IMG/VR virus record: IMGVR_UViG_3300028048_000103
Location: 1-64,000 of that record
Source of the DNA: a virus
Lineage: Duplodnaviria > Heunggongvirae > Uroviricota > Caudoviricetes
Reading direction: 5' to 3' (one strand)
Length of the DNA: 64,000 nucleotides
Below, one piece after another: positions 25,875-42,294 of the stretch. Position 1 is the first letter of the stretch, and every line of letters starts with the position of its first letter. A model generated the notes under the pieces. It worked only from the letters and a program-made list of their open reading frames with translations, was not told the origin of the DNA and ran no database searches. The position numbers were made by a program, and so were the translations under genes.

Positions 25875-25933
25875 GATTTTTGCCACGTTAAATAAAATTA
25901 AAACATTGCTGTTAGTTTTCTTAATTTTATTTG

Positions 25934-27853: not shown

Positions 27854-28407
27854 CTTACCACTATAACTTTCGTTACCAATATAAGACTAAAAATGACCTA
27901 CAGCACAAGAGGATTGCAGTCATTCCGTAACATCCCTTTTATGTTCCTCTTATTTCGGGTCTTTATATTGTTTGTGGTCTGGACTATCCCTTAACCATAT
28001 TGAAATCTTGCAAGATTGGATTAGGGTTCGTTCTTACCCCGAATAGCAGGTCGCTTTCCTGCACAGTTTGTTTTAATTTTAGAATCCAAATTTCAACTTA
28101 GGTTTCTTCCGTCTAGTCTCTACACACTGTCTATTACAAATACTGAAATGTAGCTTAATTGCATATATTTGCCTTCTATGCAATAACGCCTTTTCATTAC
28201 ATTCCCAATTAACACCTTTTGCAAACGAGGTGAGTATTTGTTTTTAACATTGGTTCGGTATTAGCATATATTAACAGGACTCTTCACCTGTCCGACTCAT
28301 ATAGAGTGTCTGATTTGATTTTATACTTAGCTTTCACCGAATTTGGAAGTTTCTACATCTAAAATTTCTTTTAGTGCACTCCTAATTAATTGATTATCAA
28401 TTACTTA
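27854..28407 (-). mobile_element. group I intron (about 554 nt) in the anticodon loop of tRNA-Arg(UCU), inserted after position 34
   Basis: Both flanking tRNA halves match exactly. The minus-strand reading has an R-like element GTAGAGACTA (28108-28117), an S-like GATAGTCCAGACC (about 27975-27990) and a P-like AATTCGGTGAAA (about 28335-28346) in the canonical order. It ends in G before the 3' exon, and the 5' exon ends in U. Confidence 0.6.
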
Positions 28408-28441
28408 AAGGCAGTTGCTCTATCCACTGAGCTACCGAAGC
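28408..28441 (-). tRNA. 5' exon (positions 1-34) of intron-split tRNA-Arg (UCU)
   Basis: Reverse complement: GCTTCGG-TA-GCTC-AGTGGATA-GAGC-A-ACTGC-CTT. Confidence 0.7.
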
Positions 28442-28465
28442 ATAAATAATATTTTTAAAAATTAG

Positions 28466-28504
28466 TGACCCCTGTGGGATTCGAACCCACGACCCCAACA
28501 TTAA
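28466..28504 (-). tRNA. 39-nt tRNA 3' half (anticodon N-U-U; acceptor AGGGGTC), 3' exon of the second intron copy
   Basis: Reverse complement: TTAA-TGTTG-GGGTC-GTGGGTTCGAATCCCAC-AGGGGTC-A. Same length and junction context (gtaccactataactttcgttacca) as the Arg 3' exon. Confidence 0.5.
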
Positions 28505-28932
28505 CGTACCACTATAACTTTCGTTACCAGTTGCAAACAAGGAGTTTAGCCCTATATTTACATACCTGTTTGTGGTCTGGACTGTATCTTAACCATATTG
28601 AAATCTTGCAAGATACTGTATGAAGAGATTTGCTGAGTTGCACAGCCTGTATCTAACTCCGGTTTCACTGGGAACATTCATACAATAATTTCAACTTAGG
28701 TTCCTCCTGTATAGTCTCTACACACTGTCTAAAGGTATTGCATTCTTGCAACTAAACTATCTCACTCCTTTTAACATTGGCTCGGTATTACCATCAGCAA
28801 CATACTTTCAAATCATTAATCCTCAGTATTCCCAAAGCATTCATTTACTTGTACGTTCTGTTAAGGTTTCACCGAATTAGGGAGGTTCTACATCCGAAGT
28901 TTCCTTCGGTGCACTCAAATTACACATTGTTC
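28505..28932 (-). mobile_element. second group I intron copy (about 430 nt), homologous to 27854..28407
   Basis: Shares four conserved blocks with intron 1: 3'-terminal accactataactttcgttacca, the S-like block at 28567-28612, the R-like block at 28688-28730, and the P-like block plus gtgcactc at 28870-28908. The central regions are divergent. Confidence 0.5.
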
Positions 28933-28967
28933 AAGACCGCTGCATTAGACCACTCTGCCACCTCACC
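28933..28967 (-). tRNA. tRNA 5' half resembling tRNA-Ser(UGA) (class II D-arm), 5' exon of the second intron copy
   Basis: Reverse complement: GGTGAGG-TG-GCA-GAGTGGTCTAA-TGC-A-GCGGT-CTT. This follows the architecture of a bacterial tRNA-Ser(UGA) 5' half. The acceptor GGTGAGG does NOT pair with the 3' half at 28466..28504. Confidence 0.45.
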
Positions 28968-29109
28968 GTAAAATAAAGATTATTCTGAACTCTGTCACCA
29001 TTAACAAATATTAGATAAAAATCTAATATTTAACAAATATTAGGTAAAAGTCTAATAATATTGTTAAACATTTATTCAATGTTACTGTCAGTTTTTTCTT
29101 TATTAAGAA

Positions 29110-29160
29110 AGTCACCATAGTATGCTGCAAGTTGGAATTGAACCAACAACTATATTCAGT
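29110..29160 (-). tRNA. orphan tRNA 3'-half-like element (T-arm GTTGGTTCAATTCCAAC, acceptor TTGCAGC)
   Basis: Good T-arm and 3' acceptor, but no canonical D or anticodon arm upstream. Possibly another split or degenerate tRNA. Confidence 0.25.
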
Positions 29161-29307
29161 TTTTTCATAATCACAGCCTTCGTGACCATATTTTATTTTC
29201 AATTTCACATATTCAATAAAATAATTTGTATTTATCAGTATTGTCAAAGAGCAATTAATTTCATTGCAAATATATAAATCTTTTTTTTAACAACAAAATT
29301 AATTTTA

Positions 29308-29378
29308 GTTGAAGGCAGAGGAATCGAACCTCTATTCTGGGAACCAAAATCCCATGTCTTGCCTTTAGACGAGCCTTC
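29308..29378 (-). tRNA. tRNA-Pro (anticodon UGG)
   Basis: Reverse complement: acceptor TGAAGGC/GCCTTCA, D-stem GTCT/AGAC, anticodon stem TGGGA/TCCCA with loop TTTTGGT, T-arm AGAGGTTCGATTCCTCT. Confidence 0.65.
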
Positions 29379-29405
29379 AATTTATTTCAAAGAACAATTG
29401 TTTAT

Positions 29406-29428
29406 CTTACAAATATCGTGCCAAAATA
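29406..29428 (-). promoter_or_regulatory. class I promoter-like motif upstream of tRNA-Pro
   Basis: cttacaaatatcgtgccaaaata. Confidence 0.4.
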
Positions 29429-29451
29429 TAAATTTTAACATTTTTTTTTTG

Positions 29452-29488
29452 CGGGAATGATAGGATTCGAACCTATAACCTACGGATT
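29452..29488 (-). tRNA. 3' exon of split tRNA-Asn (anticodon GUU)
   Basis: Reverse complement: AA-TCCGT-AGGTT-ATAGGTTCGAATCCTAT-CATTCCC-G. It pairs 7/7 (acceptor) and 5/5 (anticodon stem) with the 5' exon at 29591..29626. Confidence 0.6.
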
Positions 29489-29490
29489 AG

Positions 29491-29562
29491 ACTCAGCAAA
29501 AGGAATCGAACCTTTTTTTGGACTTGCAATGCCACCCGTCCTAACCATTAGACGATACTGAG
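29491..29562 (-). tRNA. tRNA-like element embedded inside the tRNA-Asn intervening sequence
   Basis: Reverse complement: acceptor CTCAGTA/TGCTGAG, D-arm GTCT-AATGGTTA-GGAC, T-arm AAAGGTTCGATTCCTTT. The anticodon-arm region GGTGGCATTGCAAGTCC does not form a canonical stem. Confidence 0.4.
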
Positions 29563-29590
29563 TTGGTTCGTTTCGGTGAACCATTCCGTT

Positions 29591-29626
29591 AACAGTCCGT
29601 TGCACTAACCGTTGTGCTACATTCCC
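29591..29626 (-). tRNA. 5' exon of split tRNA-Asn (GUU)
   Basis: Reverse complement: GGGAATG-TA-GCAC-AACGGTTA-GTGC-A-ACGGA-CTGTT(AA). Confidence 0.6.
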
Positions 29627-29638
29627 AATTATAAACTA

Positions 29639-29872
29639 CTATTCAGTAGTTTCAGTTTCTTCAGTCTTTACTGTATCTTCATTTTTAGGCATTGTTGCTG
29701 CTGTAACAGGTGCAACTGAATTCATCTTTTCATATTCCTCCTTCAACTTTTCAAGCCTCTTTTGTCTTGCCAACATAAGTCTCTTCTTTTCAGTAAGACT
29801 ATTTCTAACGTTTTCATTTGCATCCCTTCTTGGTGCATCAACATGTTTCTTAATGTGCTTTCTCTTTGTCAT
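29639..29872 (-). CDS. hypothetical basic K/E-rich protein
   Basis: 77-aa ORF embedded in the tRNA region. Confidence 0.4.
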   Translation of the reverse strand: MTKRKHIKKHVDAPRRDANENVRNSLTEKKRLMLARQKRLEKLKEEYEKMNSVAPVTAATMPKNEDTVKTEETETTE

Positions 29873-29901
29873 AATATATAAAGTTTAAAATTAAAAATTT
29901 G

Positions 29902-29975
29902 TACCCTCTCTCAGATTCGAACTGAGACTTTATAGGTTTTGAATCTATTCACTCTTCCAATTGGTGTAAGAGGGT
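29902..29975 (-). tRNA. type I tRNA with anticodon CAA (Leu codon UUG), atypical
   Basis: Reverse complement: acceptor ACCCTCT/AGAGGGT, T-arm CTCAGTTCGAATCTGAG, anticodon stem ATAGA/CCTAT (one mismatch) with loop TTCAAAA. The variable arm is short, unlike canonical tRNA-Leu. Confidence 0.45.
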
Positions 29976-30185
29976 AAAAAATATTGAGTTACTTGTCCTT
30001 ATCACCTTACAGTTGGTTCGTACTTCCTTCGCCTTGGATAATATATTGTTCATGCATGTCAACTATATTACCTGTACACCTTTACAACCCGCTATTGTTT
30101 TCACTGTAACACATACTTGCAAAAGCTGAAAGTTGTTTTCCTAATCCCTCACTCAATATTAAAATTTCAAAGAACATTTATTTAT

Positions 30186-30208
30186 CTTACAAAAATCATG
30201 CCAAAGGC
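30186..30208 (-). promoter_or_regulatory. class I promoter-like motif
   Basis: cttacaaaaatcatgccaaaggc, pointing leftward into the non-coding region 29981-30180 and the tRNA at 29902. Confidence 0.4.
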
Positions 30209-30234
30209 AATAAAAGCAAACATTTTTTTTTAAA

Positions 30235-30915
30235 TTACTTATTTAATATTTTGCCGTACAATTGGCCTCTTTTAAAATATTTTGATTTACCTGTGCGAGT
30301 TGGTTCAAGACTTTCTGTTATAATTTTGTCTATATCAATAGTATTTTCTCTCAAAGCCAAATCATCATATATTTTTTTTACTTGTTCAAAAAAAGGTATT
30401 CTAAATTTAAAATGCTTGGATATTTGTGTATAATAGTTATCATCATCTGTTGCATCTACAATTTCATGTTCTTCATGTTGAAGTTTTAATTGTGAGTGCT
30501 TGTCATCACCTTCCCAATATTGATACGAAACCTCTCCATCGTTTTGCATATCAACAAATATCACACTTTCTTGGTTATATTTGTAGCATAGATAAAGTGT
30601 ATCTTCAATAGTGATATTATATACCATTATAGAATTCTCAATACCATCATAGTTACCTTTTACTTTAAAATATTTATAATGTCCAATACTAAGTTGTCTT
30701 TCTAATTCATTACTTGCTTGCTGATTATATTCTTTTTCAGCCTTATTACCCATAGGATTTTCTGCTGAAATAATAGCCATTGTTCTAACCCTACGATTAG
30801 TTCCTCGTATTGCTTGTTGTGCTTTTTGTCTGCGTGATGTTTCCATCATGGCATTTTTAACACTTTTCTCTATTATATTTCTTAAATCAGTTTCAGTAAG
30901 AACTATTTTTTTCAT
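30235..30915 (-). CDS. hypothetical protein
   Basis: 226-aa ORF between tRNA blocks. Confidence 0.5.
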   Translation of the reverse strand: MKKIVLTETDLRNIIEKSVKNAMMETSRRQKAQQAIRGTNRRVRTMAIISAENPMGNKAEKEYNQQASNELERQLSIGHYKYFKVKGNYDGIENSIMVYNITIEDTLYLCYKYNQESVIFVDMQNDGEVSYQYWEGDDKHSQLKLQHEEHEIVDATDDDNYYTQISKHFKFRIPFFEQVKKIYDDLALRENTIDIDKIITESLEPTRTGKSKYFKRGQLYGKILNK

Positions 30916-30929
30916 ATTTTCTTTTTTTG

Positions 30930-31014
30930 TGGGAGTGGTTAGATTCGAACTAACTGTGTGTCATTGTAATGGATTTACAGTCCATCGCCCATCCACCATC
31001 TGAGCAGCACTCCC
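30930..31014 (-). tRNA. tRNA-Tyr (anticodon GUA), long variable arm
   Basis: Reverse complement: acceptor GGGAGTG/CACTCCC, anticodon stem ATGGA/TCCAT with loop CTGTAAA, a 16-nt variable arm, T-arm GTTAGTTCGAATCTAAC. Confidence 0.65.
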
Positions 31015-31095
31015 GTAATTAAATTCTTATTGAATTTAGAAGTCAATGTATCTCATCTTCCTACGGCTTAAAAATCCGAAAAACATACATAGTTG

Positions 31096-31178
31096 TGGGC
31101 ATTGAGAGACTTGAACTCTCACGTCATTCTGACACATGCTCCTTAGGCATGCCTGTCTACCAATTCCAGCAAACGCCC
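31096..31178 (-). tRNA. tRNA-Leu (anticodon AAG), class II
   Basis: Reverse complement: acceptor GGGCGTT/AATGCCC, D-loop AATTGGTAGA, anticodon stem CATGC/GCATG with loop CTAAGGA, long variable arm, T-arm GAGAGTTCAAGTCTCTC. Confidence 0.55.
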
Positions 31179-31250
31179 ATCATTTCATCGTATCACTTTT
31201 ATAAAAACCTCATATGTTTAAAACAACAATGCAAATATATAAATCTTTTT

Positions 31251-31406
31251 TTAAAAACCCAAATTTTTATGTACAAAAATAATGTTTTCTACATCAAAAT
31301 CATCTGTGTAATTCAACACTTCATTCAAAAATGTTTCCATTGTATAACCACTATGGTTTTTAAATTCCTCTTCCAATTGTTTGTGATTTTCCAAAATATT
31401 ATCCAT
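31251..31406 (-). CDS. possible small ORF (about 52 aa; MDNILENHKQLEEEFKNHSGYTMETFLNEVLNYTDDFDVENIIFVHKNLGF)
   Basis: Hand-translated; under 60 aa so absent from the track. It lies between two tRNAs. Confidence 0.25.
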   Translation of the reverse strand: MDNILENHKQLEEEFKNHSGYTMETFLNEVLNYTDDFDVENIIFVHKNLGF

Positions 31407-31429
31407 AATCATTAAATTTTATATTTTTG

Positions 31430-31503
31430 TGGGCAAGGTAGAACTCGAATCTACGGTCTCTTGAATATCAGTCAAGTGCTTTAACCAACTAAGCTACTTG
31501 CCC
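31430..31503 (-). tRNA. tRNA-Ile (anticodon GAU)
   Basis: Reverse complement: acceptor GGGCAAG/CTTGCCC, D-arm TAGCTTAGTTGGTTAAAGC, anticodon stem CTTGA/TCAAG with loop CTGATAT, T-arm GTAGATTCGAGTTCTAC. Confidence 0.65.
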
Positions 31504-31520
31504 TTATTTTTAAAATTTTG

Positions 31521-31602
31521 TGGGCACTGAGAGACTTGAACTCTCACATCCAAAGGATACATGCTTCTAAGGCATGTGTGTCTACCGTTCCACCAAGCAC
31601 CC
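31521..31602 (-). tRNA. tRNA-Leu (anticodon UAG), class II
   Basis: Reverse complement: acceptor GGGTGCT/AGTGCCC (two G-U pairs), anticodon stem CATGC/GCATG with loop CTTAGAA, long variable arm, T-arm GAGAGTTCAAGTCTCTC. Confidence 0.55.
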
Positions 31603-31607
31603 ATTTG

Positions 31608-31681
31608 AGTTTCAGGTGAGATTCGAACTCACGGATGTCAGTTTTGCAGACTGATGTGTTAAACCACTTCACCACTGAAAC
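31608..31681 (-). tRNA. tRNA-Cys (anticodon GCA)
   Basis: Reverse complement: acceptor GTTTCAG/CTGAAAC, anticodon stem TCAGT/ACTGA with loop CTGCAAA, T-arm GTGAGTTCGAATCTCAC. Confidence 0.6.
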
Positions 31682-31689
31682 ATATTTTG

Positions 31690-31764
31690 CAGAAGCGGAA
31701 AGATTCGAACTCTCATCAGGCAACTTTGGAGGATGCTATGCTTAACCATTTACACCACGCTTCC
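31690..31764 (-). tRNA. tRNA-Trp (anticodon CCA)
   Basis: Reverse complement: acceptor GGAAGCG/CGCTTCT, anticodon loop CTCCAAA (identical to E. coli tRNA-Trp), T-arm GAGAGTTCGAATCTTTC. Confidence 0.6.
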
Positions 31765-31775
31765 GTATTAACTAT

Positions 31776-31798
31776 CTTACAAAAATCATGCCAAAATA
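31776..31798 (-). promoter_or_regulatory. class I promoter-like motif upstream of the Trp-Cys-Leu-Ile-Leu-Tyr tRNA block
   Basis: tatcttacaaaaatcatgccaaaataaa, about 12 nt upstream (minus sense) of tRNA-Trp. Confidence 0.45.
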
Positions 31799-32109
31799 AA
31801 AAACCTCTTGGTTTTAATTCTTATTTTGTTGAAGGAATTTTAACTAAGAGGTTGGGAAAAATATGTTGTGGTTAGAAACCTATGTGATTTACTTTATACT
31901 TTCTTATCCTCTTTACAGTTTGTTCTTTCATGTGATGGTTCTTCACATGGGAGTACAAAACTATCATAACCATTAATTTGATTAACGGTTTGCCAGGATT
32001 TATATGTATAATTTTTTTGTAACATAAACAGTTATTTTCGCTTATAAATATTATTGTTTTTTAAAAAAATAAAAAAATATTAAAAAAAATCAACATTTTT
32101 TTTAAAAAG

Positions 32110-32940
32110 TTACAAATTTTCGTCAATAATATCATTAAATATTAAATGCGGATGAAATTTAATGATATCATTTTGTGCTTTAATGATGGTTTTTCCAATT
32201 TTGTTAGTATAAGTTTTAACAACATTTTTTGCCATATTATACCACCAATTAAAAGTTTTATTAAAAGTAGTATTCAGTATTTCATTAATTTTTTCTTTTT
32301 GGTTAGGTGTTAGGGTGTTTGTTACTTTATCAATTGTATTAATGTTTTTATATACTATTGTATTTTTTACTGTTTCAAAAGGGTCAATTTGCCAATTGTC
32401 CATAATTTGTTTATAAATTTCATTTATGAATGCATCTTTTTCAAATTTGTTGTTATAATATATAACATATCCTACTATTTTTTCAAAAGCATCTGTTGAT
32501 TTAGCTAATTTAGTTGCCGTATTATACATTTTTTTAGATTTATCATTATTTAATAAATCTTTACTTGATTTCATTTCTTGAAAAAGGTGTTCTATTTCAT
32601 GTTGTGTTGTTCCATTATAGTCAACATATCTATTTTGGTTTCTGAGGTAGCATAAAGTTGTTGTTAAATAATTATTTTTAAAGTTTCCTGGATTTACCAA
32701 ATTAAGTTTTTTAATGTCAGTACTATCGTTCAAATAAAATATTTGATATTCCACTTCAATAGGAAAACTAAAAACAAATGTTCTAAAAATACCTTTTTTA
32801 ATATTATTTTGTTTATTTTGTTCTTTAGCATTTTTAACTATGTTGGCAATTAACATATTAGTTTCTTTAACAACCGTCCTTGATATTCCAAGTTCTTCGT
32901 TTATTACCTTTTTGATTTCAGTTATTAAATTTTTTTCCAT
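32110..32940 (-). CDS. HExxH-motif protein, paralog 1 of 3 (putative zinc metalloprotease)
   Basis: 276 aa. Carries GTTQHEIEHLFQEMKS, YYNNKFEKDAFINEIYKQIMDN and KTFNWWYNMAKNVVKTY. Homologous to 33916..34800 and 38275..39135. Confidence 0.55.
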   Translation of the reverse strand: MEKNLITEIKKVINEELGISRTVVKETNMLIANIVKNAKEQNKQNNIKKGIFRTFVFSFPIEVEYQIFYLNDSTDIKKLNLVNPGNFKNNYLTTTLCYLRNQNRYVDYNGTTQHEIEHLFQEMKSSKDLLNNDKSKKMYNTATKLAKSTDAFEKIVGYVIYYNNKFEKDAFINEIYKQIMDNWQIDPFETVKNTIVYKNINTIDKVTNTLTPNQKEKINEILNTTFNKTFNWWYNMAKNVVKTYTNKIGKTIIKAQNDIIKFHPHLIFNDIIDENL

Positions 32941-32942
32941 AA

Positions 32943-33158
32943 TTATTTTTCTTTAATATATAATTGGCAGCAACAAATATCTTCTTCTCTATATGCTTTG
33001 CATGGACAGATATCATCATCAGTACCACTATATTTATTATTGCAAGGACAATGACCATTGCATCTATCAAGGCTCTTCATAATACCATTAACAATTTTGT
33101 CGTTTGGATTTATTTTCCATCCATCTTTTCTTAGTATTTTCCAATTTTTAAGTTCCAT
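32943..33158 (-). CDS. small Cys-rich protein (zinc-ribbon-like)
   Basis: 71 aa. CNGHCPCNNKYSGTDDDICPCKAYREEDICCCQLY. Confidence 0.4.
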   Translation of the reverse strand: MELKNWKILRKDGWKINPNDKIVNGIMKSLDRCNGHCPCNNKYSGTDDDICPCKAYREEDICCCQLYIKEK

Positions 33159-33161
33159 TTG

Positions 33162-33944
33162 TTATTTTTTGTTATATTGTTCAATTATTCCATTTTTTGT
33201 ATTTAAAACAAAAGCCTGTCTTACGTCAAGGTCAGCCACCCAATTTTCTACAATTGGTGTATCTTGTAATTGTGTATGGCCACAAATAAAATGTACATTT
33301 GGATATTCAATGTTGTTTTCGTCAGAATATTCATTGATATCAGCCCAAACAATTGACCCATTGTCCCAACCATCCCAACCTCTATATCTTGAATATATAC
33401 CCATTGCTATTTCAAAATCATGTGTAGATTTTGTTTCATAATTTCGTCCGTTATCATATGCAGCATGAAACAGATTGTTAAAATATTCAGCATCAGGAAG
33501 ACCTTCATTGTTCCATTCAAAAAGTTTATTTTTTACCCAAGTATCAAACCAATCTTTTCTTACACCTGCATGTGAAAAAAAATAACGTTTATTATTGATA
33601 GTTGTCTCCCAAGCAAGGTCAAATAATTTTATATTAGAAAAATATAATTTATTAAGTTTATTATAGTTTGTATAGTCAGTTCGACATTCACATATATTAC
33701 TATTAATGTATGAAAAATCATGATTTCCCATTAATAATACTACTTTATCATTATTTTCTTTTTTAAACTTAATAATTTCTTTGAAAATTTTCATTGCATG
33801 TGCATTGGTTATCTCTTCATATGGATATGGTGATACATAATCCCCTAAAAAAATAACCTTATCATAGTCATCAATATGTGCACATGGTTCAATCCAAAAT
33901 TCTCTTCCGTGTACATCAGGAATTATTAGTATTTTGTTCATCAT
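33162..33944 (-). CDS. calcineurin-like Ser/Thr phosphatase / metallophosphoesterase
   Basis: 260 aa. Motifs DVHG, GDYV, GNHD and a later GH... histidine motif in order. The stretch IIPDVHGREFW...VIFLGDYVSPYP...LLMGNHDFSY is PPP-family-like. Confidence 0.6.
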   Translation of the reverse strand: MMNKILIIPDVHGREFWIEPCAHIDDYDKVIFLGDYVSPYPYEEITNAHAMKIFKEIIKFKKENNDKVVLLMGNHDFSYINSNICECRTDYTNYNKLNKLYFSNIKLFDLAWETTINNKRYFFSHAGVRKDWFDTWVKNKLFEWNNEGLPDAEYFNNLFHAAYDNGRNYETKSTHDFEIAMGIYSRYRGWDGWDNGSIVWADINEYSDENNIEYPNVHFICGHTQLQDTPIVENWVADLDVRQAFVLNTKNGIIEQYNKK

Positions 33945-34800
33945 TTAAGAAATCATCTGTTTTAAAATTATTTTCTTCTATTCTTCCATATATATGTGTT
34001 AATGTGTTTTCTTGACACAAATCTTTTTGGGCTTTAACTATTATTTTTCCTATTTTGGTTTTGTAATTTTTAACAACATTCTTAGCCATGTTGTACCACC
34101 ATTTATAATGTTTTCCAAAGGTGTTTGAAACAATGTTATCTATTACTTGTTTAACATAAATTGAATCATTGTTCAGATATTTTTCAATAATTAATATGTT
34201 ATTAAATGTGTCAGTTTTTTTTACTATATCAATTGGGTTCTTAAATTTGTTATCAATAATTTGTCTATATATATCATTAGCATATCCATCCTTTTCGAAC
34301 CTATTGTTATAATAAACAGTAAAACCAACAAGTGCTTCAAATAAATTATTATTGGTTATACCTATTGTTATTAAATTTTTTGCTTTTGTATATGTAGTTA
34401 TATTTTGAGGTGTTAATAAATATTTTCCAGATTTAATTATTTGATATGTATGTTCAAGTTCGTGTTGTGTGCTTCCTTTATAGTCAATATATTTGTTTAT
34501 TTCCTTAATATAACAAATTATAACATGTATTTCTTTATTATTTGTGGTGTTACCTGCATCAATATAACTGAATTCTTCTTTTTCTTTAATGGTATTAAAA
34601 AAATATAGAGTATAAAAAACATCATATTTTTCACCAAAAAGATTATATTGTTTTAAACAGCCTTGTTTAATGCTATTGTTAGGTATAGATTTACTATTTT
34701 TAACAATATTGTTAATTAGTATGTTTGTGGTATTAGTTACCAATTGACTAATACCCAATTCTTCATTTATTTCTTGTGTAATTTCTTCAAAAAGTGTCAT
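33916..34800 (-). CDS. HExxH-motif protein, paralog 2 of 3
   Basis: 294 aa. Carries GSTQHELEHTYQIIKS, YYNNRFEKDGYANDIYRQIIDN and KHYKWWYNMAKNVVKNY. Confidence 0.55.
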   Translation of the reverse strand: MTLFEEITQEINEELGISQLVTNTTNILINNIVKNSKSIPNNSIKQGCLKQYNLFGEKYDVFYTLYFFNTIKEKEEFSYIDAGNTTNNKEIHVIICYIKEINKYIDYKGSTQHELEHTYQIIKSGKYLLTPQNITTYTKAKNLITIGITNNNLFEALVGFTVYYNNRFEKDGYANDIYRQIIDNKFKNPIDIVKKTDTFNNILIIEKYLNNDSIYVKQVIDNIVSNTFGKHYKWWYNMAKNVVKNYKTKIGKIIVKAQKDLCQENTLTHIYGRIEENNFKTDDFLNDEQNTNNS

Positions 34801-34840
34801 TTTTTGCTTTTTTTATACTATTTATTCTAAAAATTATTAA

Positions 34841-34984
34841 AGATATGGCATGTGCATGTAAACAAAAATCATCAGGTGAAGTTAAGGCTGTTAAACAAGT
34901 AGTAAAAAATGTTAACAAAAAAACAACGCCTAATACAAGTGTAAAGAAAACAACTGTAAGAAAAATTACTTATAGAAGACCCAT
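34841..34984 (+). CDS. possible small basic protein (about 47 aa, MACACKQKSSGEVKAVKQVVKNVNKK...)
   Basis: The only plus-strand ORF in the 188-nt gap between two minus genes; part of track ORF 34794..34988. Confidence 0.2.
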
Positions 34985-34988
34985 TTAA

Positions 34989-36563
34989 TTATAATCCGAC
35001 AGATAATGGATATTTAATTGAGGGATATGACTGATATTCTTTAATCTTAATATCACCATATGTAAACTCTTCTATATTTTTCCTCTCAGGATTAAGCCAT
35101 AACTTAGGAAGTCCATACATGTGTGGATTTCTATTTTTTTGCTCTTTTTCGTAAATTTCAATTTGGTTTTCATACATATGTACATCACCACCGCTAAATA
35201 TAAGTTCATCTACACCCATATTACAACATTGCGCAATCATATAAGTCATTATAGAATAGGAAGTTATATTGTACGGTAAACCTAAACCACAATCCACGCT
35301 GCGCTGATTCCACATACAACTTAGTTTTCTTGTTGGAACACCTGCATTGTCAAATATTCTATTACTTCTTTCCTCATCATCAGGATACCATATAACAGAC
35401 CCATCAGCATAATTATCAACTACGTATTGTTCTCTTTCTTTGAAAGTCATTTTCTTCGTATAGAACTGACAGCAATAGTGACAAGGAGGCAATGCCATTG
35501 TTTTTAATTCACCAACGTTCCAAGCGGAAACAATAAGCCTTCTGTCATCAGGGTTAGTTTTAAGTTTATTAATAAGTTCATTAATTTGGTCAACACCGTT
35601 CCAATTTCTCCATTGTTTACCATAAACAGGGCCTAAATCACCAAACACATACTGTTTATAAGTAGATAAATTATCTTCGATACTTTTAGGGTATATTTTA
35701 GTTTGTTTTAAAACCTCAGATAAAAAATCATTTTTTGAAAGTTGTGGTGTTGTATTATTTTTGGTAAGTTCCAAATAATACCTATATGCATCATCATCCC
35801 AAATATGAACACCATTTTCTACTAAATATTTAATATTGGTTTCACCTTTTAAAAACCAAAGAAGTTCATGAATAATTCCTTTTGTAAATACTTTTTTTGT
35901 CGTGAGTATTGGTAAACCCTCTTTTAAATTAAATCTAAGTTGTTTACCAAATAATGACCTTGTTTTACCTGCTCTTGTATCTTTGATTTCACCATGTTCA
36001 ATAATATCATTAACTAAATTAAGATATTGTTCATCAACATGATTGTTCATACCATTACATTTAATATATGTCATTGCATAAGCCTTTCTATGTTCTATCT
36101 CAATAGGTTGACCAATTTCCTCCCAATTTGGATTCGTTACAATATCTGGAAAAAAAGTATCAGCATCAGGTACATCAACCGCAAGCATATCAATCATCAC
36201 CTTGTCTACTAAATTATGTGATAAAGCATAATCATATATACTTGCACCACCAATAATGAAAATTTCATCATCTATTGTTTTAGCATAACTTATTGCTTCT
36301 TCGACATCACTGACAACTTTTACATCTTTATATCTTGCTTCATATTCTTTTCTTGAAGTAACAACAATATTGGTTCTGTTTGGAAGTGGATGACCAATTG
36401 CTTCAAATGTTTTTCTACCCATAATAACAGGATGTCCTGTTGTTGTGTCTTTAAACCATTTTAAATCCGCCTTATTATTCCAAGGCATATTTCCTTTTAT
36501 ACCAATAGGGAAACCATGATTTGGTACATAGTTTCCCACGGCAACAATAATATTAACACTCAT
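34989..36563 (-). CDS. bifunctional dihydrofolate reductase-thymidylate synthase (DHFR N-terminal, TS C-terminal)
   Basis: 524 aa. The N-terminus IVAVGNYVPNHGFPIGIKGNMPWN...DLKWFKDTTTGHPVIMGRKTFEAIG...RTNIVVTS matches DHFR. The C-terminus PVYGKQWRNW...DDRRLIVSAWNVGEL...MALPPCHYCCQFY matches ThyA including the catalytic Cys. Confidence 0.8.
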   Translation of the reverse strand: MSVNIIVAVGNYVPNHGFPIGIKGNMPWNNKADLKWFKDTTTGHPVIMGRKTFEAIGHPLPNRTNIVVTSRKEYEARYKDVKVVSDVEEAISYAKTIDDEIFIIGGASIYDYALSHNLVDKVMIDMLAVDVPDADTFFPDIVTNPNWEEIGQPIEIEHRKAYAMTYIKCNGMNNHVDEQYLNLVNDIIEHGEIKDTRAGKTRSLFGKQLRFNLKEGLPILTTKKVFTKGIIHELLWFLKGETNIKYLVENGVHIWDDDAYRYYLELTKNNTTPQLSKNDFLSEVLKQTKIYPKSIEDNLSTYKQYVFGDLGPVYGKQWRNWNGVDQINELINKLKTNPDDRRLIVSAWNVGELKTMALPPCHYCCQFYTKKMTFKEREQYVVDNYADGSVIWYPDDEERSNRIFDNAGVPTRKLSCMWNQRSVDCGLGLPYNITSYSIMTYMIAQCCNMGVDELIFSGGDVHMYENQIEIYEKEQKNRNPHMYGLPKLWLNPERKNIEEFTYGDIKIKEYQSYPSIKYPLSVGL

Positions 36564-36566
36564 TGT

Positions 36567-37268
36567 TTATTCTTTTGACTTCGTTATTATTTCATCAATA
36601 AGGCCATAAGTTCCATATACGCCAGGTAATGCTTCATTAGGCATAAGCCAATGGTCTCTATCAGCATCTTTTTCAATTTCCTCAAATGTTTTACCTGTAT
36701 TCTCAGCCAAAATATTGTAAAGGATATTTTGCCATTTTTGTGATTCTCTTGCTTCAATTTGAAGGTCTGCGTTTTTAAGATAACCATTATATGATGCAAC
36801 CTGATGAATCATAATTGTACTGTTAGGCAATGCATATCTTTTACCTCTCACGCCTGATGACAAGAGTATTGATGCCATTGATGCTGCCATTCCCATGCAG
36901 TATGTAGCAACATCAGGTATAACAAAATTACATGTATCTCTTATTGAAAGGCCATCAATAACACTCCCACCTCCGCTTGATATGAACATTTTAATTGTGT
37001 CATCAATATCTGAAATTGAATTAAGATAAAGAAGTTGTGCGTTAATCACACTTGCGGTATCACCATCAATTTCGCCTGAAAGATAAATAATTTTCTCTCT
37101 AATCAAGGCAGAAAACACATCCATTGATGCAACATTAAGTGGTCTTTCCTCAATAATTGTAGGGCTTATAATCCTGTTCTTAATTGTGTTGTTATAGCCG
37201 TTAATTTTACTTGTACTAACACCCTTATCAATGGCAAATTTCTCAAAATCGTTTAACTTATAATTCAT
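36567..37268 (-). CDS. clpP: ClpP-family serine protease
   Basis: 233 aa. MFISSGGGSVIDGLSIRDTCNFVIPDVATYCMGMAASMASILLSSGVRGKRYALPNSTIMIHQ aligns with the ClpP Ser (GMAASMAS) and His (MIHQ) catalytic context. Confidence 0.7.
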   Translation of the reverse strand: MNYKLNDFEKFAIDKGVSTSKINGYNNTIKNRIISPTIIEERPLNVASMDVFSALIREKIIYLSGEIDGDTASVINAQLLYLNSISDIDDTIKMFISSGGGSVIDGLSIRDTCNFVIPDVATYCMGMAASMASILLSSGVRGKRYALPNSTIMIHQVASYNGYLKNADLQIEARESQKWQNILYNILAENTGKTFEEIEKDADRDHWLMPNEALPGVYGTYGLIDEIITKSKE

Positions 37269-37278
37269 AATATTTTAA

Positions 37279-37303
37279 TTTTTAACAAATATATAAAAAG
37301 TTA
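37279..37303 (-). promoter_or_regulatory. class II variant promoter-like motif
   Basis: tttttaacaaatatataaaaagtt, about 12 nt upstream of the ClpP ATG. Confidence 0.35.
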
Positions 37304-37321
37304 TTTTAAAAAGCAAAAATA

Positions 37322-38263
37322 TTAGTCCTCATGTTTTAACAACATTGACGGATTAACATGTGTGATTTCATCCGTTATAGGTTCAATTTCTTTATCATCG
37401 TAATAAACTGATGCTGCACTACCAATACCTTTAATTAGTTTGTTCAATCTAAAATTGATTTTTTTTCTAAATTCTTTTTTAAATGATAATAGTCCATCAT
37501 GATATGGTTTAATGTTTATTCCACTTTTTCGTAAACTTACGTTTATTTGATGATAATTATCATTGTTAATCGCACGGAACAAATCAGGTAAATTTTCTCT
37601 TATTTTTCTATATAGACAATATGCTTGACTTTCTTGAATGTCATGTCTGAAATTTTTTCTCTCTGAATTACAACCTTGTAAAGAACCGTAAACAGATGCT
37701 ATTAAAGCGTTTAGTTCAGTTTCCGAAAATAGTCTATAAATAATAAGTTCTAAGATTTCTTTAAGATAATCATCAATTTGTATGTCAGCAGTGTCAATTT
37801 TTGACTTTGTGGCACTGTTCGCATATCTTCTTGCAACCCCCCAATTATTAGTTATATCTTGATAGTAATCGTACACATGGTTTAGTTCATGATACAATGA
37901 TGTCAATATAGTTTTAGTGTACAAAACATGTTTGTAAGAATATGCATATATAAAAATTTTAGCGTTTTTTAATTTACCGTTAACAATTTCGTTTGTGTAT
38001 TTTACTGTTGTTTTTCCCCCACCACTCAAAAATTTACCATTAACATTTTCAGTGACCGTAATTTCAAGATAAAGATTTTCAACAAAATCAATTTTTTGTG
38101 TAATTTCATTTGGAAGTACGAAATTTGTAGTTCCGGTAAATTTGTTTTTCCATATAAAATCTTGACAATATTTAATAATTTCTTTAGCCACATTATTATA
38201 TTTTGATGCAGCAACACCTCTTTCTTCGACTAATCTTATTATTTTTTCTTCTGATAATACCAT
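37322..38263 (-). CDS. hypothetical protein
   Basis: 313-aa ORF. Confidence 0.5.
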   Translation of the reverse strand: MVLSEEKIIRLVEERGVAASKYNNVAKEIIKYCQDFIWKNKFTGTTNFVLPNEITQKIDFVENLYLEITVTENVNGKFLSGGGKTTVKYTNEIVNGKLKNAKIFIYAYSYKHVLYTKTILTSLYHELNHVYDYYQDITNNWGVARRYANSATKSKIDTADIQIDDYLKEILELIIYRLFSETELNALIASVYGSLQGCNSERKNFRHDIQESQAYCLYRKIRENLPDLFRAINNDNYHQINVSLRKSGINIKPYHDGLLSFKKEFRKKINFRLNKLIKGIGSAASVYYDDKEIEPITDEITHVNPSMLLKHED

Positions 38264-38274
38264 AAGTCACTCAA

Positions 38275-39135
38275 TTATTTTAATAATTCTTCACCAATTC
38301 CAAATGTTCCACCATCAAGTTCATGATATTTTTTATTTAAATCATTATATGCTTTAGCATAAACTTTTCCAATTTTGTTAATATATGTTTTAACTACTTT
38401 ATTTGTCAAATTATAAAACCAAGTGTAATTTTTACCAAAATTTGTTTTAACAATATCAGTAAATTTGTTTTTATAAATTTCGCTATCTAATACATATTTT
38501 TTAATAGTATTGATGTTTTGATATGTTATTGTTGATTTTAATGTTTCGTATGGATTGTTATTTGGATTATTTATTATTTGTCTATAAATTGCATTAGCAA
38601 AAGCATCTTTTTCAAACCTACAACCATAATACACAACAGTACCAACAATTTTATCACAAAAATCAAAAGAATTTTTTAGTTTTTCTGATTTTTTATATAA
38701 AGAAAGGCTATCTCTATTTGAAAGCAAATGTTTTCCGGATTTAATCATCTGATAAATATGTTCAAGTTCGTGCTGAAGATTACCATTAAAATCAATATAT
38801 TGATTAATATCACTAACATAAACTATTGTTGTTTTTAACTCGTATGTGTTGTTGTTAATTTTATTGGAACTTCCTCTATTATTCGAAATTGAATAAAATA
38901 TGTCATTATATGTAGACACATAGTACAAATCATAATTTATATTAATTGTACTATTTTCAAAATTATAAGCAAAATTACCATGTTTATAATTTCTAATACT
39001 GTTTTTTTGTGAAGGTACGGTTTTACTGTGTTGAATTATTTTTGATAATATATCATTTGATGTTGTTGACACAATATCAGCAACACCGAGTTCTTCATAT
39101 AATTTGTACCTTATTTCTGTTAACAAATCTTTCAC
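38275..39135 (-). CDS. HExxH-motif protein, paralog 3 of 3
   Basis: 286 aa. Carries GNLQHELEHIYQMIKS, YYGCRFEKDAFANAIYRQIINN and KNYTWFYNLTNKVVKTY. Confidence 0.55.
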   Translation of the reverse strand: MKDLLTEIRYKLYEELGVADIVSTTSNDILSKIIQHSKTVPSQKNSIRNYKHGNFAYNFENSTININYDLYYVSTYNDIFYSISNNRGSSNKINNNTYELKTTIVYVSDINQYIDFNGNLQHELEHIYQMIKSGKHLLSNRDSLSLYKKSEKLKNSFDFCDKIVGTVVYYGCRFEKDAFANAIYRQIINNPNNNPYETLKSTITYQNINTIKKYVLDSEIYKNKFTDIVKTNFGKNYTWFYNLTNKVVKTYINKIGKVYAKAYNDLNKKYHELDGGTFGIGEELLK

Positions 39136-39140
39136 TATTA

Positions 39141-39980
39141 TTATAAATTAATTAACTCTTCATTATCATTTTCAATATCATCAATATTATTTATTACAAA
39201 TTTGTAATAACCACCATCAGGATTAGGGACATCAATATATTCATAAATAACATCATCCTTGTCTGATATGTCCCATAACACAAAACCATGTTCGGATATA
39301 CTTTCACCAAAATTTTTTTGATTAATTGATGAACAGTACACGATTTTAACACCGTTCTTTTTAATTTCCTGTTTTTTATGAATATGGCCGGCAATAACAA
39401 AATCACAATTTTCAAAAACATTGGGGTCAACACCATTTTCGGTAACACGATTAGTTGCAGTAATTGCACCATTGACATCACCATGGATTAAACCAATGTA
39501 TATGTTATCATCACCGTATTTTGTTTTTGCTGCTTCTATATCAGGAGGGTTAAAACCTTCAAATGATGAATAAAGACACCAAACAACATTATCATCTTTA
39601 AAACAATCTGATTTATATTTAAGTTGTTTGTCAAGATAAATAACATTTTTCATTTTGTTAATTTCGAATAGAGGTGTTATTGAATCAACCCTTTCTATAT
39701 TATTCATTAACATATCATGGTTTCCTGCAATAACAATTGTTTTAGTTATTTTACCAAGTTCATCTAAAAACCAATAAGCCAATAATTGTGATTCATTCGA
39801 AATATTAATTTTTTGATTAAATAAATCACCTGCAACCACAATTCTTACATTATCTTTTTCCTCCTTTTCAACAATCTCTTTACATTGATTTATAAATGTG
39901 GTTAAAATAGTTTTTAATTCGTCAATCCCCTGATAATTAGGAATATGTATATCACTGCATGCAATTATTTTAGTTATCAT
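39141..39980 (-). CDS. SbcD/Mre11-like metallophosphoesterase (putative nuclease)
   Basis: 279 aa. Motifs ACSDIHI, VVAGDLF, AGNHD and GHIH in the canonical order. Confidence 0.5.
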   Translation of the reverse strand: MITKIIACSDIHIPNYQGIDELKTILTTFINQCKEIVEKEEKDNVRIVVAGDLFNQKINISNESQLLAYWFLDELGKITKTIVIAGNHDMLMNNIERVDSITPLFEINKMKNVIYLDKQLKYKSDCFKDDNVVWCLYSSFEGFNPPDIEAAKTKYGDDNIYIGLIHGDVNGAITATNRVTENGVDPNVFENCDFVIAGHIHKKQEIKKNGVKIVYCSSINQKNFGESISEHGFVLWDISDKDDVIYEYIDVPNPDGGYYKFVINNIDDIENDNEELINL

Positions 39981-40330
39981 TTCTTTTTGTTCTTTTTTTG
40001 TTGTTCATCATATTTATATATTTCTTCATAGTCAAAATCATACTTAAGACCCCATTGAAGATTAAACCAATTGAATTCACGTTCCATTTGTGATTTTTTC
40101 ACTGATTTTGGTTGCCAATCATAAAAATGGTCGTAGAAAAACTGTCTCCATTCAAGAAACTGTTCAAGGGTTTTAAATGTAAATCTTGTATAAAATTCAT
40201 ATTCTTTTTGTTCTTCTTCGGGCATTGCTGTAATGTCCTTATATCTGACATCAGTACCACTGATTTCAAGTTCTTTGTCTATTATTAATTCAACAAATTC
40301 TTTGTCTGTTAATTTTTTTACATAAGCCAT
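39977..40330 (-). CDS. hypothetical protein
   Basis: 117-aa ORF, Phe/Tyr/Trp-rich. Confidence 0.45.
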   Translation of the reverse strand: MAYVKKLTDKEFVELIIDKELEISGTDVRYKDITAMPEEEQKEYEFYTRFTFKTLEQFLEWRQFFYDHFYDWQPKSVKKSQMEREFNWFNLQWGLKYDFDYEEIYKYDEQQKKNKKK

Positions 40331-40354
40331 AATATCGTATAATTTATTTTGTTA

Positions 40355-41404
40355 TTAAACCAATTCAAGTTCAGTAAATTGTTTTTTTGATTTCATTATT
40401 TTAATTATATTTTTTTTACCATCTTCTTCATAGGCTTCGCCAAAATCTTTCCACGGTAATGTGTTAGTTCCTAATCTAACATACCAAATTTTGCCATATA
40501 GTTTTCCTTGATTAAGTAGTTGGTATATTCTTTTTATTTCACTAATATCAACATCACCATCAAGACATATTGTGACATTGGCATTTGCTTTTTTATAAAT
40601 TTTTTTATAGAGTTCAGTATCTTTAGTTAATGCTTTTCCAAGTAAACTAATAACATTGCCGTTGCCATATATACAATCAATTGCACCCTCAACAAGCCAT
40701 ATATCAGCGTTCCATTTAATTTTGTCTTCCTGAAATATTATTTGTTTTTTATCAATATTACAGTTTTTATATTTAACTTTTTTGGAATTACCTGAAAAAT
40801 CTCTTCCAACCCAATAATTTAAATCACCATTAATATCATATGATGGTATTATAATCCTATCTCTATCTTGCCATTTTTCCTCATCCCAAGTAGTATAACC
40901 AATGTTATAATAATCAATAATTTCTTGGTTAATATTTCTTTTTTTTAGATATTCAACTAATTTCTTTTTTTTACATTTTTCAAGATTAATTTTAGTAAAA
41001 GTTGGTGGCAAAACAACATTGTTTGTTATACCTAATAAATTATTTTGATTATCTTTGAATAGTTCTAAATTATAATATTTATTTTCTTTAAATTCATCAA
41101 TTATTGCAAAATATTCAGACAATAATTCAGAAGTGCCCCATCGTTTTATCAATTTTGATATGTTACCACCATGTTCAGTTGACCAATCATGATATTTACC
41201 TAATGATAAAGATACTTCAAGATTATATTTGCCATCAGGTATTCCACTGTTTTCATCAGTTATCCAAGGTGAATTAAATTGATATTGAGTTTCATTTACA
41301 TTGAACCCTCCTTGTTTTGATTCACCTAAAATTGTTTGTAAAATGTTATATATACTTTTTACTTCTAATGGTAACATATATAGTGGTTTTGTACAAAAAT
41401 ACAA
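40355..41404 (-). CDS. Toprim-domain protein (DnaG-like primase candidate)
   Basis: 349 aa. WLVEGAIDCIYGNGNVISLLG ... VTICLDGDVD gives the conserved Glu and the DxD of a Toprim fold. Confidence 0.45.
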   Translation of the reverse strand: MYFCTKPLYMLPLEVKSIYNILQTILGESKQGGFNVNETQYQFNSPWITDENSGIPDGKYNLEVSLSLGKYHDWSTEHGGNISKLIKRWGTSELLSEYFAIIDEFKENKYYNLELFKDNQNNLLGITNNVVLPPTFTKINLEKCKKKKLVEYLKKRNINQEIIDYYNIGYTTWDEEKWQDRDRIIIPSYDINGDLNYWVGRDFSGNSKKVKYKNCNIDKKQIIFQEDKIKWNADIWLVEGAIDCIYGNGNVISLLGKALTKDTELYKKIYKKANANVTICLDGDVDISEIKRIYQLLNQGKLYGKIWYVRLGTNTLPWKDFGEAYEEDGKKNIIKIMKSKKQFTELELV

Positions 41405-41439
41405 AAAAAAATTAAATAAACAAAAAAGGCTTAGATTTT

Positions 41440-42294
41440 CTAAGCCTTAATAGTAGATACAACATTCAATAGTCTTTTCTTAGTTTTAGAAATTATTTGT
41501 CTAATACGTTCAGAGGAAAAACCAAGTTGTTCTCCAATTTCATAATTAGTATATTCTTTATCATAATCAATGCCAAAAGCCATTTTCATTATTGTTCTAT
41601 CTCTTTCGTTTAATATTGAAAGAAGTTTCTTTATTACTGCCTTGTTATGTTCCTTATCTATTGTCTCTTCATAATCATTATAACTGGCTGTTCTTTGATT
41701 ATATGCTTTGGTTTTTTCTTTAGTATTTTCTTCATCATCAAGAAAATCATTTATTGATTCCGATGAAATATCAAATACTTCACTTTCATTCTGAATTTCA
41801 ACATTAAAATCATTTTTCATGAAATCAATTATTTCATCATCAGAAGGATATCTACCGTTTTCGCAATAAAATTTGTTTTTAATCTTATTTAGTTTAGTAC
41901 CAATTTTCATATTATTGGTTCTTTTAATAAGAAGATTATCATTTGTCATATAATAATTTATGGCCCTTCTTATATACCAAACAGCATATGACAAAAATCT
42001 TACACCTTTTGTATCATCATATTTTTCAATTGCCGTAATGAGGCCAATGTTACCTTCATTAACTAAGTCCATTATTGAATCATCTGATGCATATCTTTTG
42101 GCAATAGCAAAAACAAACCTCTGATTACAATTAATAAGTTTTTCTCTTGCTTCATTATCACCTTCTTTAATCTTATAAATCAAATCAATTTCCTCATCAG
42201 GAGAAAGCAAAGGATATTTGCGTATTTCGGAAAGATAAGTATTAAGACCATCAGTTTTAGGTGTAAAACCACCATTAATAAGTTTAATATTCAT
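41440..42294 (-). CDS. sigma-70 family RNA polymerase sigma factor
   Basis: 284 aa. Region 2 reads DLVNEGNIGLITAIEKYDDTKGVRFLSYAVWYIRRAI. A region 4-like helix-turn-helix reads YTNYEIGEQLGFSSERIRQIISKTKKRL. Confidence 0.7.
   Translation of the reverse strand: MNIKLINGGFTPKTDGLNTYLSEIRKYPLLSPDEEIDLIYKIKEGDNEAREKLINCNQRFVFAIAKRYASDDSIMDLVNEGNIGLITAIEKYDDTKGVRFLSYAVWYIRRAINYYMTNDNLLIKRTNNMKIGTKLNKIKNKFYCENGRYPSDDEIIDFMKNDFNVEIQNESEVFDISSESINDFLDDEENTKEKTKAYNQRTASYNDYEETIDKEHNKAVIKKLLSILNERDRTIMKMAFGIDYDKEYTNYEIGEQLGFSSERIRQIISKTKKRLLNVVSTIKA

Follow-up and report, generated by a model that had tools for sequence, protein, structure and literature searches.

A dihydrofolate reductase-thymidylate synthase fusion conserved in Lak-related huge phages and most likely born within phages

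The window analyzed here is a 64,000-nucleotide stretch of viral DNA (Caudoviricetes; IMG/VR record IMGVR_UViG_3300028048_000103, positions 1 to 64,000) that carries, on its minus strand, one gene for a dihydrofolate reductase (DHFR) joined to a thymidylate synthase (TS). Bifunctional DHFR-TS is a textbook feature of protozoa and plants. An initial annotation of the locus had described a single 524-aa open reading frame (ORF) in a phage that combines an N-terminal DHFR with a ThyA bearing the LPPCH active site, both complete, and our analysis bears out each part of that description. The gene and its parts, all on the minus strand, are the following.

34989..36563, minus: complete DHFR-TS gene, 524 codons plus a TAA stop at 34989-34991 (ORF list, sequence, Pfam, identical product elsewhere)
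36060..36563, minus: DHFR domain, residues 1-168 (PF00186, E 2.6e-39; N-terminal extension absent)
36189-36191, minus: codon of Asp125, at the Thr113 position of Escherichia coli FolA (alignment)
36042..36059, minus: inter-domain linker, residues 169-174, CNGMNN (structure prediction and family alignment)
34992..36041, minus: ThyA-type TS domain, residues 175-524 (PF00303, TIGR03284, catalytic residues)
35643..35786, minus: TS insertion 1, about residues 260-307 (alignment to E. coli ThyA)
35481..35483, minus: codon of the catalytic nucleophile Cys361, E. coli Cys146, within ALPPCHY (sequence)
35334..35450, minus: TS insertion 2, about residues 372-410, a helical hairpin (alignment and structure prediction)
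35268..35270, minus: codon of Asn432, E. coli Asn177, the pyrimidine-specificity residue (sequence)

The ORF list gives the gene as an uninterrupted frame from an ATG start to TAA. The gene immediately upstream also ends in TAA, 3 nt ahead of the DHFR-TS ATG; because both boundary stops are TAA, the limits of the DHFR-TS gene are independent of any recoding of TAG or TGA. A scan of positions 34700-36800 against Rfam, group I and II introns included, returned no family at E<=1, and the gene is thus without a recognizable intron. An ENA contig from an independent assembly (ERZ27252073 k141_353794, 12.8 kb) codes for an identical 524-aa protein with the same neighbors. The possibility that a frameshift, stop or intron separates the two halves, raised when the ORF was first described, is therefore disposed of: none was found, and the independent assembly, together with more than 130 fused homologs, excludes a reading as two genes. 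The fusion is real.

Using E. coli FolA and ThyA (NC_000913) as references, we compared each half with its single-domain counterpart. The N-terminal half matches Pfam DHFR_1 (PF00186) over residues 19-168 (134.9 bits against a cutoff of 25; profile positions 13-156 of 159), and its top sequence matches in the Protein Data Bank (PDB) are bacterial DHFRs, at 76-100 bits. Equivalents of FolA G15, P21, W22, D27, F31, K32, R44, T46, L54, R57, G95, G96 and Y100 are kept, and the catalytic and cofactor residues are conserved family-wide, including in the Prevotella phages known as Lak, whose DHFR half is 44% identical to that of the window. Such conservation at this distance indicates purifying selection on these residues. 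The domain also has an insertion of about 7 aa ahead of the M20-loop region. Thr113 of FolA hydrogen-bonds Asp27 and the pterin; among the residues checked, this is the one position of a type I (FolA) DHFR at which the window protein departs. By profile and residue tests, Thr113 aside, the N-terminal half is thus predicted to be a type I DHFR with the short bacterial-type fold.

The C-terminal half matches Pfam Thymidylat_synt (PF00303) over residues 178-522 and the entire profile (1-266 of 266; E 7.4e-93, 311 bits, cutoff 24.3), and scores 309 bits against the NCBIfam thymidylate synthase equivalog TIGR03284, whose cutoff is 108. All 15 TS residues checked are present (E. coli numbering: R21, E58, W80, Y94, R126, R127, C146, H147, Q165, R166, S167, D169, N177, H207 and Y209), among them all four of the dUMP phosphate-binding arginines R21, R126', R127' and R166. 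Across 135 fusions these residues are near-invariant, the exceptions being Gln165, replaced by Met in 48 fusions, and Asn177, replaced by Asp in 4. Cys361 is invariant in the 78 aligned family members and in all 135 surveyed fusions. The residue equivalent to Asn177 bears on substrate choice, as its change to Asp is the switch from dUMP to dCMP (Asp179 of T4 dCMP hydroxymethylase; N177D and N229D mutants of TS). Asn occupies this site in 131 of the 135 megaphage fusions, and Asp is confined to a Lak subclade; in the window it is Asn432, which indicates dUMP as the substrate and lacks the Asp that would mark a hydroxymethylase or other dCMP-acting paralog. Profile and residue evidence alike identify this half as a predicted ThyA-type TS.

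Two insertions set this TS apart from E. coli ThyA. Insertion 1, at the site of the known Lactobacillus-type TS insertion, varies from 45 to 82 aa across the family. Insertion 2 sits in the turn behind the strand that bears the catalytic Cys, where E. coli ThyA has none, and is polymorphic: 52 of the 78 family members carry it, and in the other 26 the matching segment is just 10 residues. Past insertion 2, residues 414-437 occur in two versions (…WNQRSVD…LPFNI… and …FHMRSND…PFNW…) whose distribution does not track overall identity, a discordance that points to recombination inside the DHFR-TS gene.

We predicted the structure of the 524-aa protein with AlphaFold2 (AF2), using an alignment of 78 sequences as input. 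The model has a predicted local distance difference test score (pLDDT) of 91.1 and a predicted template-modeling score (pTM) of 0.86, with a confident and rigid junction. The DHFR half adopts an alpha/beta fold (strands E2-9 through E161-168) in which pLDDT dips to 72 at residues 21-30. Insertion 1 is modeled as helices 256-267 and 277-286 with strands at 293-302, and insertion 2 as helices 374-384 and 397-407 (pLDDT 89-96). At the junction, the last DHFR strand (161-168) is followed, after a linker of 6 residues (pLDDT 92-93), by the first TS helix (175-190). This junction is short and constant in length in the family alignment; Met172 within it is not conserved. Eukaryotic DHFR-TS enzymes are marked in solved structures by a crossover helix (apicomplexans) or an N-terminal tail (kinetoplastids). 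The window protein has neither, its first DHFR strand beginning at residue 2. Trypanosoma cruzi DHFR-TS comes nearest to the predicted geometry (TMq 0.58-0.60; root-mean-square deviation [rmsd] 6.4-6.6 A), whereas the apicomplexan and plant enzymes superpose at the TS core only (TMq ~0.50, rmsd 15-16 A).

Searches for relatives established that the fusion is not a singleton but is conserved across a large group of huge phages related to Lak. A search of nr90 returned 120 clusters at 57-98% identity, covering 100% of the query in 119 cases and 92% in one; all 120 contain both Pfam domains, and their source contigs reach 399 kb. An exhaustive search of 1.84 billion representatives brought in more distant fusions. 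In total, more than 130 full-length fused homologs (45-98% identity) were found, every one with DHFR first. The two domains occur together in 173 of 270 retrieved proteins, again without exception in DHFR-first order (173/173). A single-ORF fusion is present at 14 IMG/VR loci, on contigs of 11-554 kb. The best protein-level matches in the phage collection are all 15 genomes of Prevotella phages Lak-A/B/C, each aligning as one tblastn piece with 100% coverage and 49-50% identity. Only the Lak genomes and, with lower identity, T4-like phages of Sinorhizobium matched a junction-spanning query in one piece. When the same collection was probed with P0172, a compact fusion of the type discussed below, only two-piece matches were obtained, that is, separate genes. 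We also considered the 457-aa 'thymidylate synthase' of Pseudomonas phage 201phi2-1 as a possible fusion in a cultivated phage and rejected it by way of its phiKZ-like relative PhiPizzaParty. In that phage the 264-aa TS core lies in three pieces over 1,473 nt, which suggests that the long phiKZ-like proteins are TS enzymes with internal insertions.

Several members of the wider TS family show traces of mobile elements. At locus L084 (IMGVR_UViG_3300028886_000029, 7630-8984), and likewise at L085, a 380-aa I-TevI-like endonuclease with GIY-YIG, NUMOD3 and I-TevI DNA-binding domains lies directly 3' of DHFR-TS. Beyond it is an orphan 64-aa ORF that matches, at 90% identity, the C-terminal end of a DHFR-TS of the window type; the resident gene is only 72% identical. 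This arrangement looks like the footprint of a homing cassette that apparently replaced the 3' end of the gene, with the window representing the uninvaded allele, and such a cassette probably explains the mosaic C-terminal variants of the family. Among the TS-only phage relatives (P0267, P0139, P0146 and P0183), some reach 530-650 aa through large internal insertions, and P0267 contains an intein with a LAGLIDADG endonuclease within its TS domain. Taken with the I-TevI-like cassette, the intein marks phage TS genes as a hotspot for selfish elements.

The origin of the fusion was addressed with a neighbor-joining tree of the TS half (32 taxa, 272 columns, 500 bootstraps). The megaphage fusions are monophyletic (80% bootstrap) and group with phage TS-only proteins that have the same insertions (100%). 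The compact fusions of 430-480 aa, from giant-virus metagenome-assembled genome (MAG) contigs, form a clade of their own (95%), and the megaphage and compact giant-virus or eukaryote-type fusions came together in 0 of 500 bootstraps (0%). Common descent with the fusion of eukaryotes and nucleocytoplasmic large DNA viruses (NCLDV) is thus not borne out for the TS half. The initial annotation had described the architecture as characteristic of protist DHFR-TS. This holds for the domain order and for the fusion itself; shared descent is unlikely, at least for the TS half, given its phage-type affinity, a 6-residue linker and a predicted geometry that does not superpose on apicomplexan or plant enzymes. 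An earlier, 212-taxon neighbor-joining tree of TS domains (100 bootstraps) gave exact-clade supports of 0-57%, which were too low, and was replaced by the 32-taxon test.

Gene order offers a further guide. The expectation that bacteria and T4-like phages encode the two enzymes separately held in the loci surveyed: bacterial and archaeal loci have separate genes in 80 of 80 cases, as do the two T4-like phages described next, and wherever the bacterial or archaeal genes are adjacent thyA precedes folA (50 of 50), so that loss of a stop codon there would yield TS-DHFR. Candidate fusions in bacterial genomes (matches from residue 1 or 20 to 522 within 1.2-1.4 kb) were rejected, as the ORFs show a separate thyA followed by folA. 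In the T-even phage MX01, the order is DHFR then TS, with a 4-nt overlap. In phiM12, dfrA and td share a reading frame, with only a stop codon and a single extra codon between them, and are therefore one mutation from a fusion. We propose that a DHFR was joined to the upstream end of a phage-type TS with two insertions, in the gene order (DHFR, then TS) that is native to T4-like phages. The fusion most likely arose within phages, and its likeness to the DHFR-TS of protists and giant viruses is most likely convergent, at least for the TS half.

Several observations weigh against this account. The trees are neighbor-joining only, and no named protist sequence is among the taxa. The tree of the DHFR half, built on 134 columns, has every relevant bootstrap at <=10%, and the mean DHFR distance to giant-virus-type domains (1.15) is no larger than that to bacterial ones (1.27); support for an independent origin accordingly comes from the TS half, together with the linker, the predicted geometry and the order of the genes. 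Asp125 replaces the highly conserved Thr113, and Asp is found there in every family member, Lak included. The bacterial survey represents the best 80 of 360 candidates. Finally, no DHFR gene lies within 6 kb of TS at any of the 66 closest TS-only viral loci, and a state directly preceding the fusion is therefore not observed in this lineage.

Comparison with known systems places the window protein among several partial matches. Protist and plant DHFR-TS (T. cruzi 3CLB, Babesia bovis 3I3R, Cryptosporidium hominis 1QZF, Plasmodium falciparum, Arabidopsis 8DAE) have the same DHFR-first, TS-last chain with both active sites intact, a similar length in Babesia and T. cruzi (~510-520 aa) and, in kinetoplastids, a short linker that the window's recalls. 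They differ in that the window TS is phage-type and has two insertions, its DHFR is nearer to bacterial enzymes in score, and its linker is 6 residues. The DHFR-TS of giant viruses (Marseilleviridae, Mimiviridae, Phycodnaviridae) is likewise virus-encoded, bifunctional and DHFR-first, but it is compact (~430-480 aa), lacks both insertions, forms a separate TS clade and belongs to viruses of eukaryotic hosts. The frd and td genes of T4-like phages (Escherichia phage MX01, Sinorhizobium phage phiM12) share the order, the abutting arrangement, the nucleotide-metabolism context and presumably the chemistry; they specify two polypeptides, with an overlap or an in-frame stop in place of the window's 6-residue peptide linker.

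Against this background, we weighed four other accounts of the protein. That an error in sequencing or assembly made adjacent dfr and td genes look like one, through the loss of a stop codon or frameshift, is conceivable in principle, as the single stop of phiM12 and the 4-nt overlap of MX01 show that one error could mimic a fusion. The identical ORF on an independent assembly, the recovery of more than 130 fused homologs from many samples and assemblers, the 15 of 15 curated Lak genomes that read across the junction in one piece, and the conserved junction residues, modeled at pLDDT >90, make this explanation vanishingly improbable. A ready-made fused gene might instead have been taken from a protist or giant virus, making it homologous to eukaryotic DHFR-TS. 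The domain order is identical, the top PDB matches over the whole protein are protist DHFR-TS enzymes, the DHFR-half tree is compatible with a giant-virus-type affinity, and the predicted geometry is closest to that of T. cruzi. However, besides the grouping of the TS half, the TS-only proteins listed outscore compact fusions against the window TS (240-388 versus 157-221 bits), and the Babesia DHFR domain reaches just 34 bits, compared with the 76-100 of bacterial DHFRs. Both the crossover helix and the kinetoplastid tail are absent, and apicomplexan and plant enzymes align at the TS core alone. We consider such a transfer very unlikely.

The remaining two accounts concern chemistry rather than ancestry. 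The TS-like half could be a pyrimidine-modifying paralog (a dUMP or dCMP hydroxymethylase, or a dCMP methylase) serving to produce a modified base for DNA. Such roles are frequent among phage TS-family enzymes (PMC7824862), Lak members of the family have Asp where E. coli ThyA has Asn177, and the two TS insertions are unusual. The window protein nonetheless keeps Asn177 together with every reductive-methylation residue surveyed and passes the TIGR03284 equivalog cutoff threefold. Moreover, hydroxymethylases release tetrahydrofolate (THF) rather than dihydrofolate (DHF), so a fused DHFR would be pointless for them and bring no gain. We give this account as little credence as the transfer of a ready-made gene. 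Still less probable is that the TS half alone is catalytic, with the DHFR-like domain reduced to a degenerate appendage that has a structural or regulatory role. The Asp at the Thr113 position, the 7-aa insertion ahead of the M20 loop and the local dip in pLDDT to 72 would fit such decay, but the equivalents of Asp27, Trp22, Phe31, Arg44, Thr46, Leu54, Arg57, Gly95-Gly96 and Tyr100 are conserved, in Lak too. The explanation we favor overall, and hold to be highly probable, is a genuine bifunctional DHFR-TS of huge phages whose fusion was born within phages, separately from that of eukaryotes and giant viruses.

If so, the protein is probably a functional enzyme with both predicted activities, for which ordinary enzymology would be expected. 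The ThyA domain would convert dUMP and 5,10-methylene-THF to dTMP and DHF, and the DHFR domain would reduce DHF with NADPH to THF, closing the dTMP cycle within one polypeptide. In ThyA, each active site spans both subunits of the homodimer, Arg126' and Arg127' coming from the partner. A TS-centered homodimer with one DHFR flanking it on each side would therefore be expected. Fusion would provide 1:1 synthesis and proximity of consecutive enzymes while a genome of ~70% A+T and several hundred kb is replicated, and channeling of DHF between the two active sites is possible.

The Lak branch departs from the window at the specificity site. In true Lak (L001:8001-9548, from Lak-C1), the position of Asn177 is occupied by Asp (GLPYDLLSY) with the other TS catalytic residues intact, and the same type occurs at loci L091, L092, L094 and L096 and in proteins P0125, P0126, P0129 and P0130. 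This substitution suggests dCMP rather than dUMP as the substrate of the Lak branch, and Lak megaphages may thus make 5-methyl-dCMP with a built-in DHFR. We also entertain, as a speculation we think unlikely to hold in full, that the rigid 6-residue junction and the hairpin insertion create a kinetoplastid-like DHF-channeling geometry that nucleates a phage dNTP complex, and that, jointly, the Asn177-to-Asp switch leads by way of 5-methyl-dCMP to Lak DNA substituted with 5-methylcytosine.

The surroundings of the gene bear out its assignment to a phage. The features noted elsewhere in the window are listed below.

10372-11312: adjacent NUDIX and MGS-like domain proteins (domain matches)
21308-22456, minus: 382-aa ORF matching F420-0:gamma-glutamyl ligase, CofE (PF01996, E 5e-32)
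23412-31764, minus: 16 tRNA genes, for Ser, Thr, His, Glu, Ala (two), Met, Val, Gln, Leu (three), Tyr, Ile, Cys and Trp, in a region of low ORF coverage
30235-30915: S-AdoMet-lyase/DUF3293-like protein, possibly anti-restriction (domain match)
32110-32940, 33916-34800 and 38275-39135, minus: three paralogous ORFs of ~280 aa around the DHFR-TS/ClpP pair (sequence comparison)
34794-34988, plus: small, very basic ORF (core MACACKQK…VRKITYRRPI), ending one base short of the DHFR-TS stop on the opposite strand
36567..37268, minus: ClpP-like protease gene, 3 nt upstream of the DHFR-TS start (PF00574, E 7e-54)
50860-52173, plus: BspA-type leucine-rich-repeat protein (domain match)
53380-57342, plus: 1,320-aa protein with BACON and 'viral BACON' domains (domain matches)
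59883-60359: Macro-domain protein (domain match)
60850-61476: NT5C deoxypyrimidine 5'-nucleotidase (domain match)
62433-63215: N-acetylmuramoyl-L-alanine amidase, a likely endolysin (domain match)

In addition, the window (~30% G+C) encodes a DnaG-like primase, a sigma-70 factor, three metallophosphoesterases and a helicase; most of its ORFs have no family match, and of 10 large ORFs compared with PHROGs, just 3 were recognized, as a helicase, an ATPase-like protein and a protein of unknown function. The tRNA genes, the amidase, the BACON protein, the primase, the synteny with large IMG/VR contigs and the Lak homologs together support the phage source. The window shares with IMG/VR contigs of 344-363 kb a block made up of primase, metallophosphoesterase, a hypothetical protein, ClpP and DHFR-TS. 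The pair of ClpP and then DHFR-TS is conserved at L084-L086, L088, L090, L093 and L099, with the ClpP of L084 98% identical to that of the window, and the two genes are probably co-transcribed. A scan for promoters and terminators performed no better than on shuffled sequence. Treating TAG or TGA as sense raised ORF coverage from 78% to 82-83%, no strong sign of recoding.

Close to the pair, the three ~280-aa paralogs all match one L084 ORF at 38-64% identity, and none has a Pfam match. An HExxH-like motif (HELEH or HELNH) occurs in the 33916-34800 ORF and in the neighboring 37322-38263 ORF; the latter is 96% identical to its own L084 counterpart and is also without a Pfam match. The small basic ORF is kept tail-to-tail with DHFR-TS in L084 (8986-9123, MACSCKQK…VRKIIYRRPI). 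In the CofE-like ORF, a 218-position profile is stretched across 363 residues, and the enzyme would be unexpected in a gut phage.

The Lak phages are the closest deposited phage genomes to the window and resemble it in their full-length DHFR-TS and in both TS insertions. They differ in the longer linker, in the Asp at the Asn177 position and in synteny, as DHFR-TS alone is common to the window and the Lak loci within flanks of about 6-8 kb. Megablast of window positions 30000-42000 against deposited phages gave no DNA-level match. Lak uses genetic code 15 in parts (PMC6784885), whereas the window, as noted, has no strong sign of TAG recoding. Synteny, DNA similarity and code 15 thus all fail to place the window among the Lak megaphages ('Lakviridae'/'Grandevirales'), and its sequence identifies it as part of a huge phage related to Lak at the protein level but not itself Lak. 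Domains of the BACON and BspA types are characteristic of elements associated with Bacteroidota. Given the BACON domains, and the affinity to Lak and Prevotella, we infer a Bacteroidota host, probably of the gut.

Among viruses, bifunctional DHFR-TS has been described for Marseilleviridae, Mimiviridae and Phycodnaviridae, and the Lausannevirus enzyme was shown to be functional; T-even and T5 phages are cited as having separate genes (PMC5365716). A comparative study of jumbo phages reports that DHFR and TS co-occur and does not mention a fusion (PMC7824862), the main texts of the Lak papers PMC6784885, PMC8346664 and PMC11165621 contain no mention of thymidylate or dihydrofolate, and in the literature searched we found no description of a phage DHFR-TS fusion. 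Some homologs carry the automatic JGI label 'dihydrofolate reductase/thymidylate synthase', and the phage fusion is therefore already in databases but, as far as we found, unanalyzed. Its chemistry and domain order are known; what is new is the distinct architecture and, most likely, a separate origin, at least of the TS half.

The evolutionary interest of the fusion is moderate. DHFR-TS has served as a "rare derived character" that polarizes the eukaryote tree, as a marker of bikonts, a use that is debated (PMC9366629, PMC2817406). Our analysis would imply that the fusion evolved more than once, bacterial viruses included, which weakens arguments from its uniqueness and offers a natural comparison for what selects it, whether stoichiometry, stability or channeling. 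Within the family, mosaicism through an I-TevI-like homing endonuclease and the presence or absence of an insertion appears to be active, and the Asn-to-Asp switch in Lak yields a hypothesis on DNA modification in megaphages. For Lak-related huge phages, whose proteomes are mostly hypothetical, DHFR-TS is a conserved and recognizable enzyme, and it could serve as a marker, or as a handle for antifolate sensitivity, in uncultivated phages of Prevotella and other Bacteroidota.

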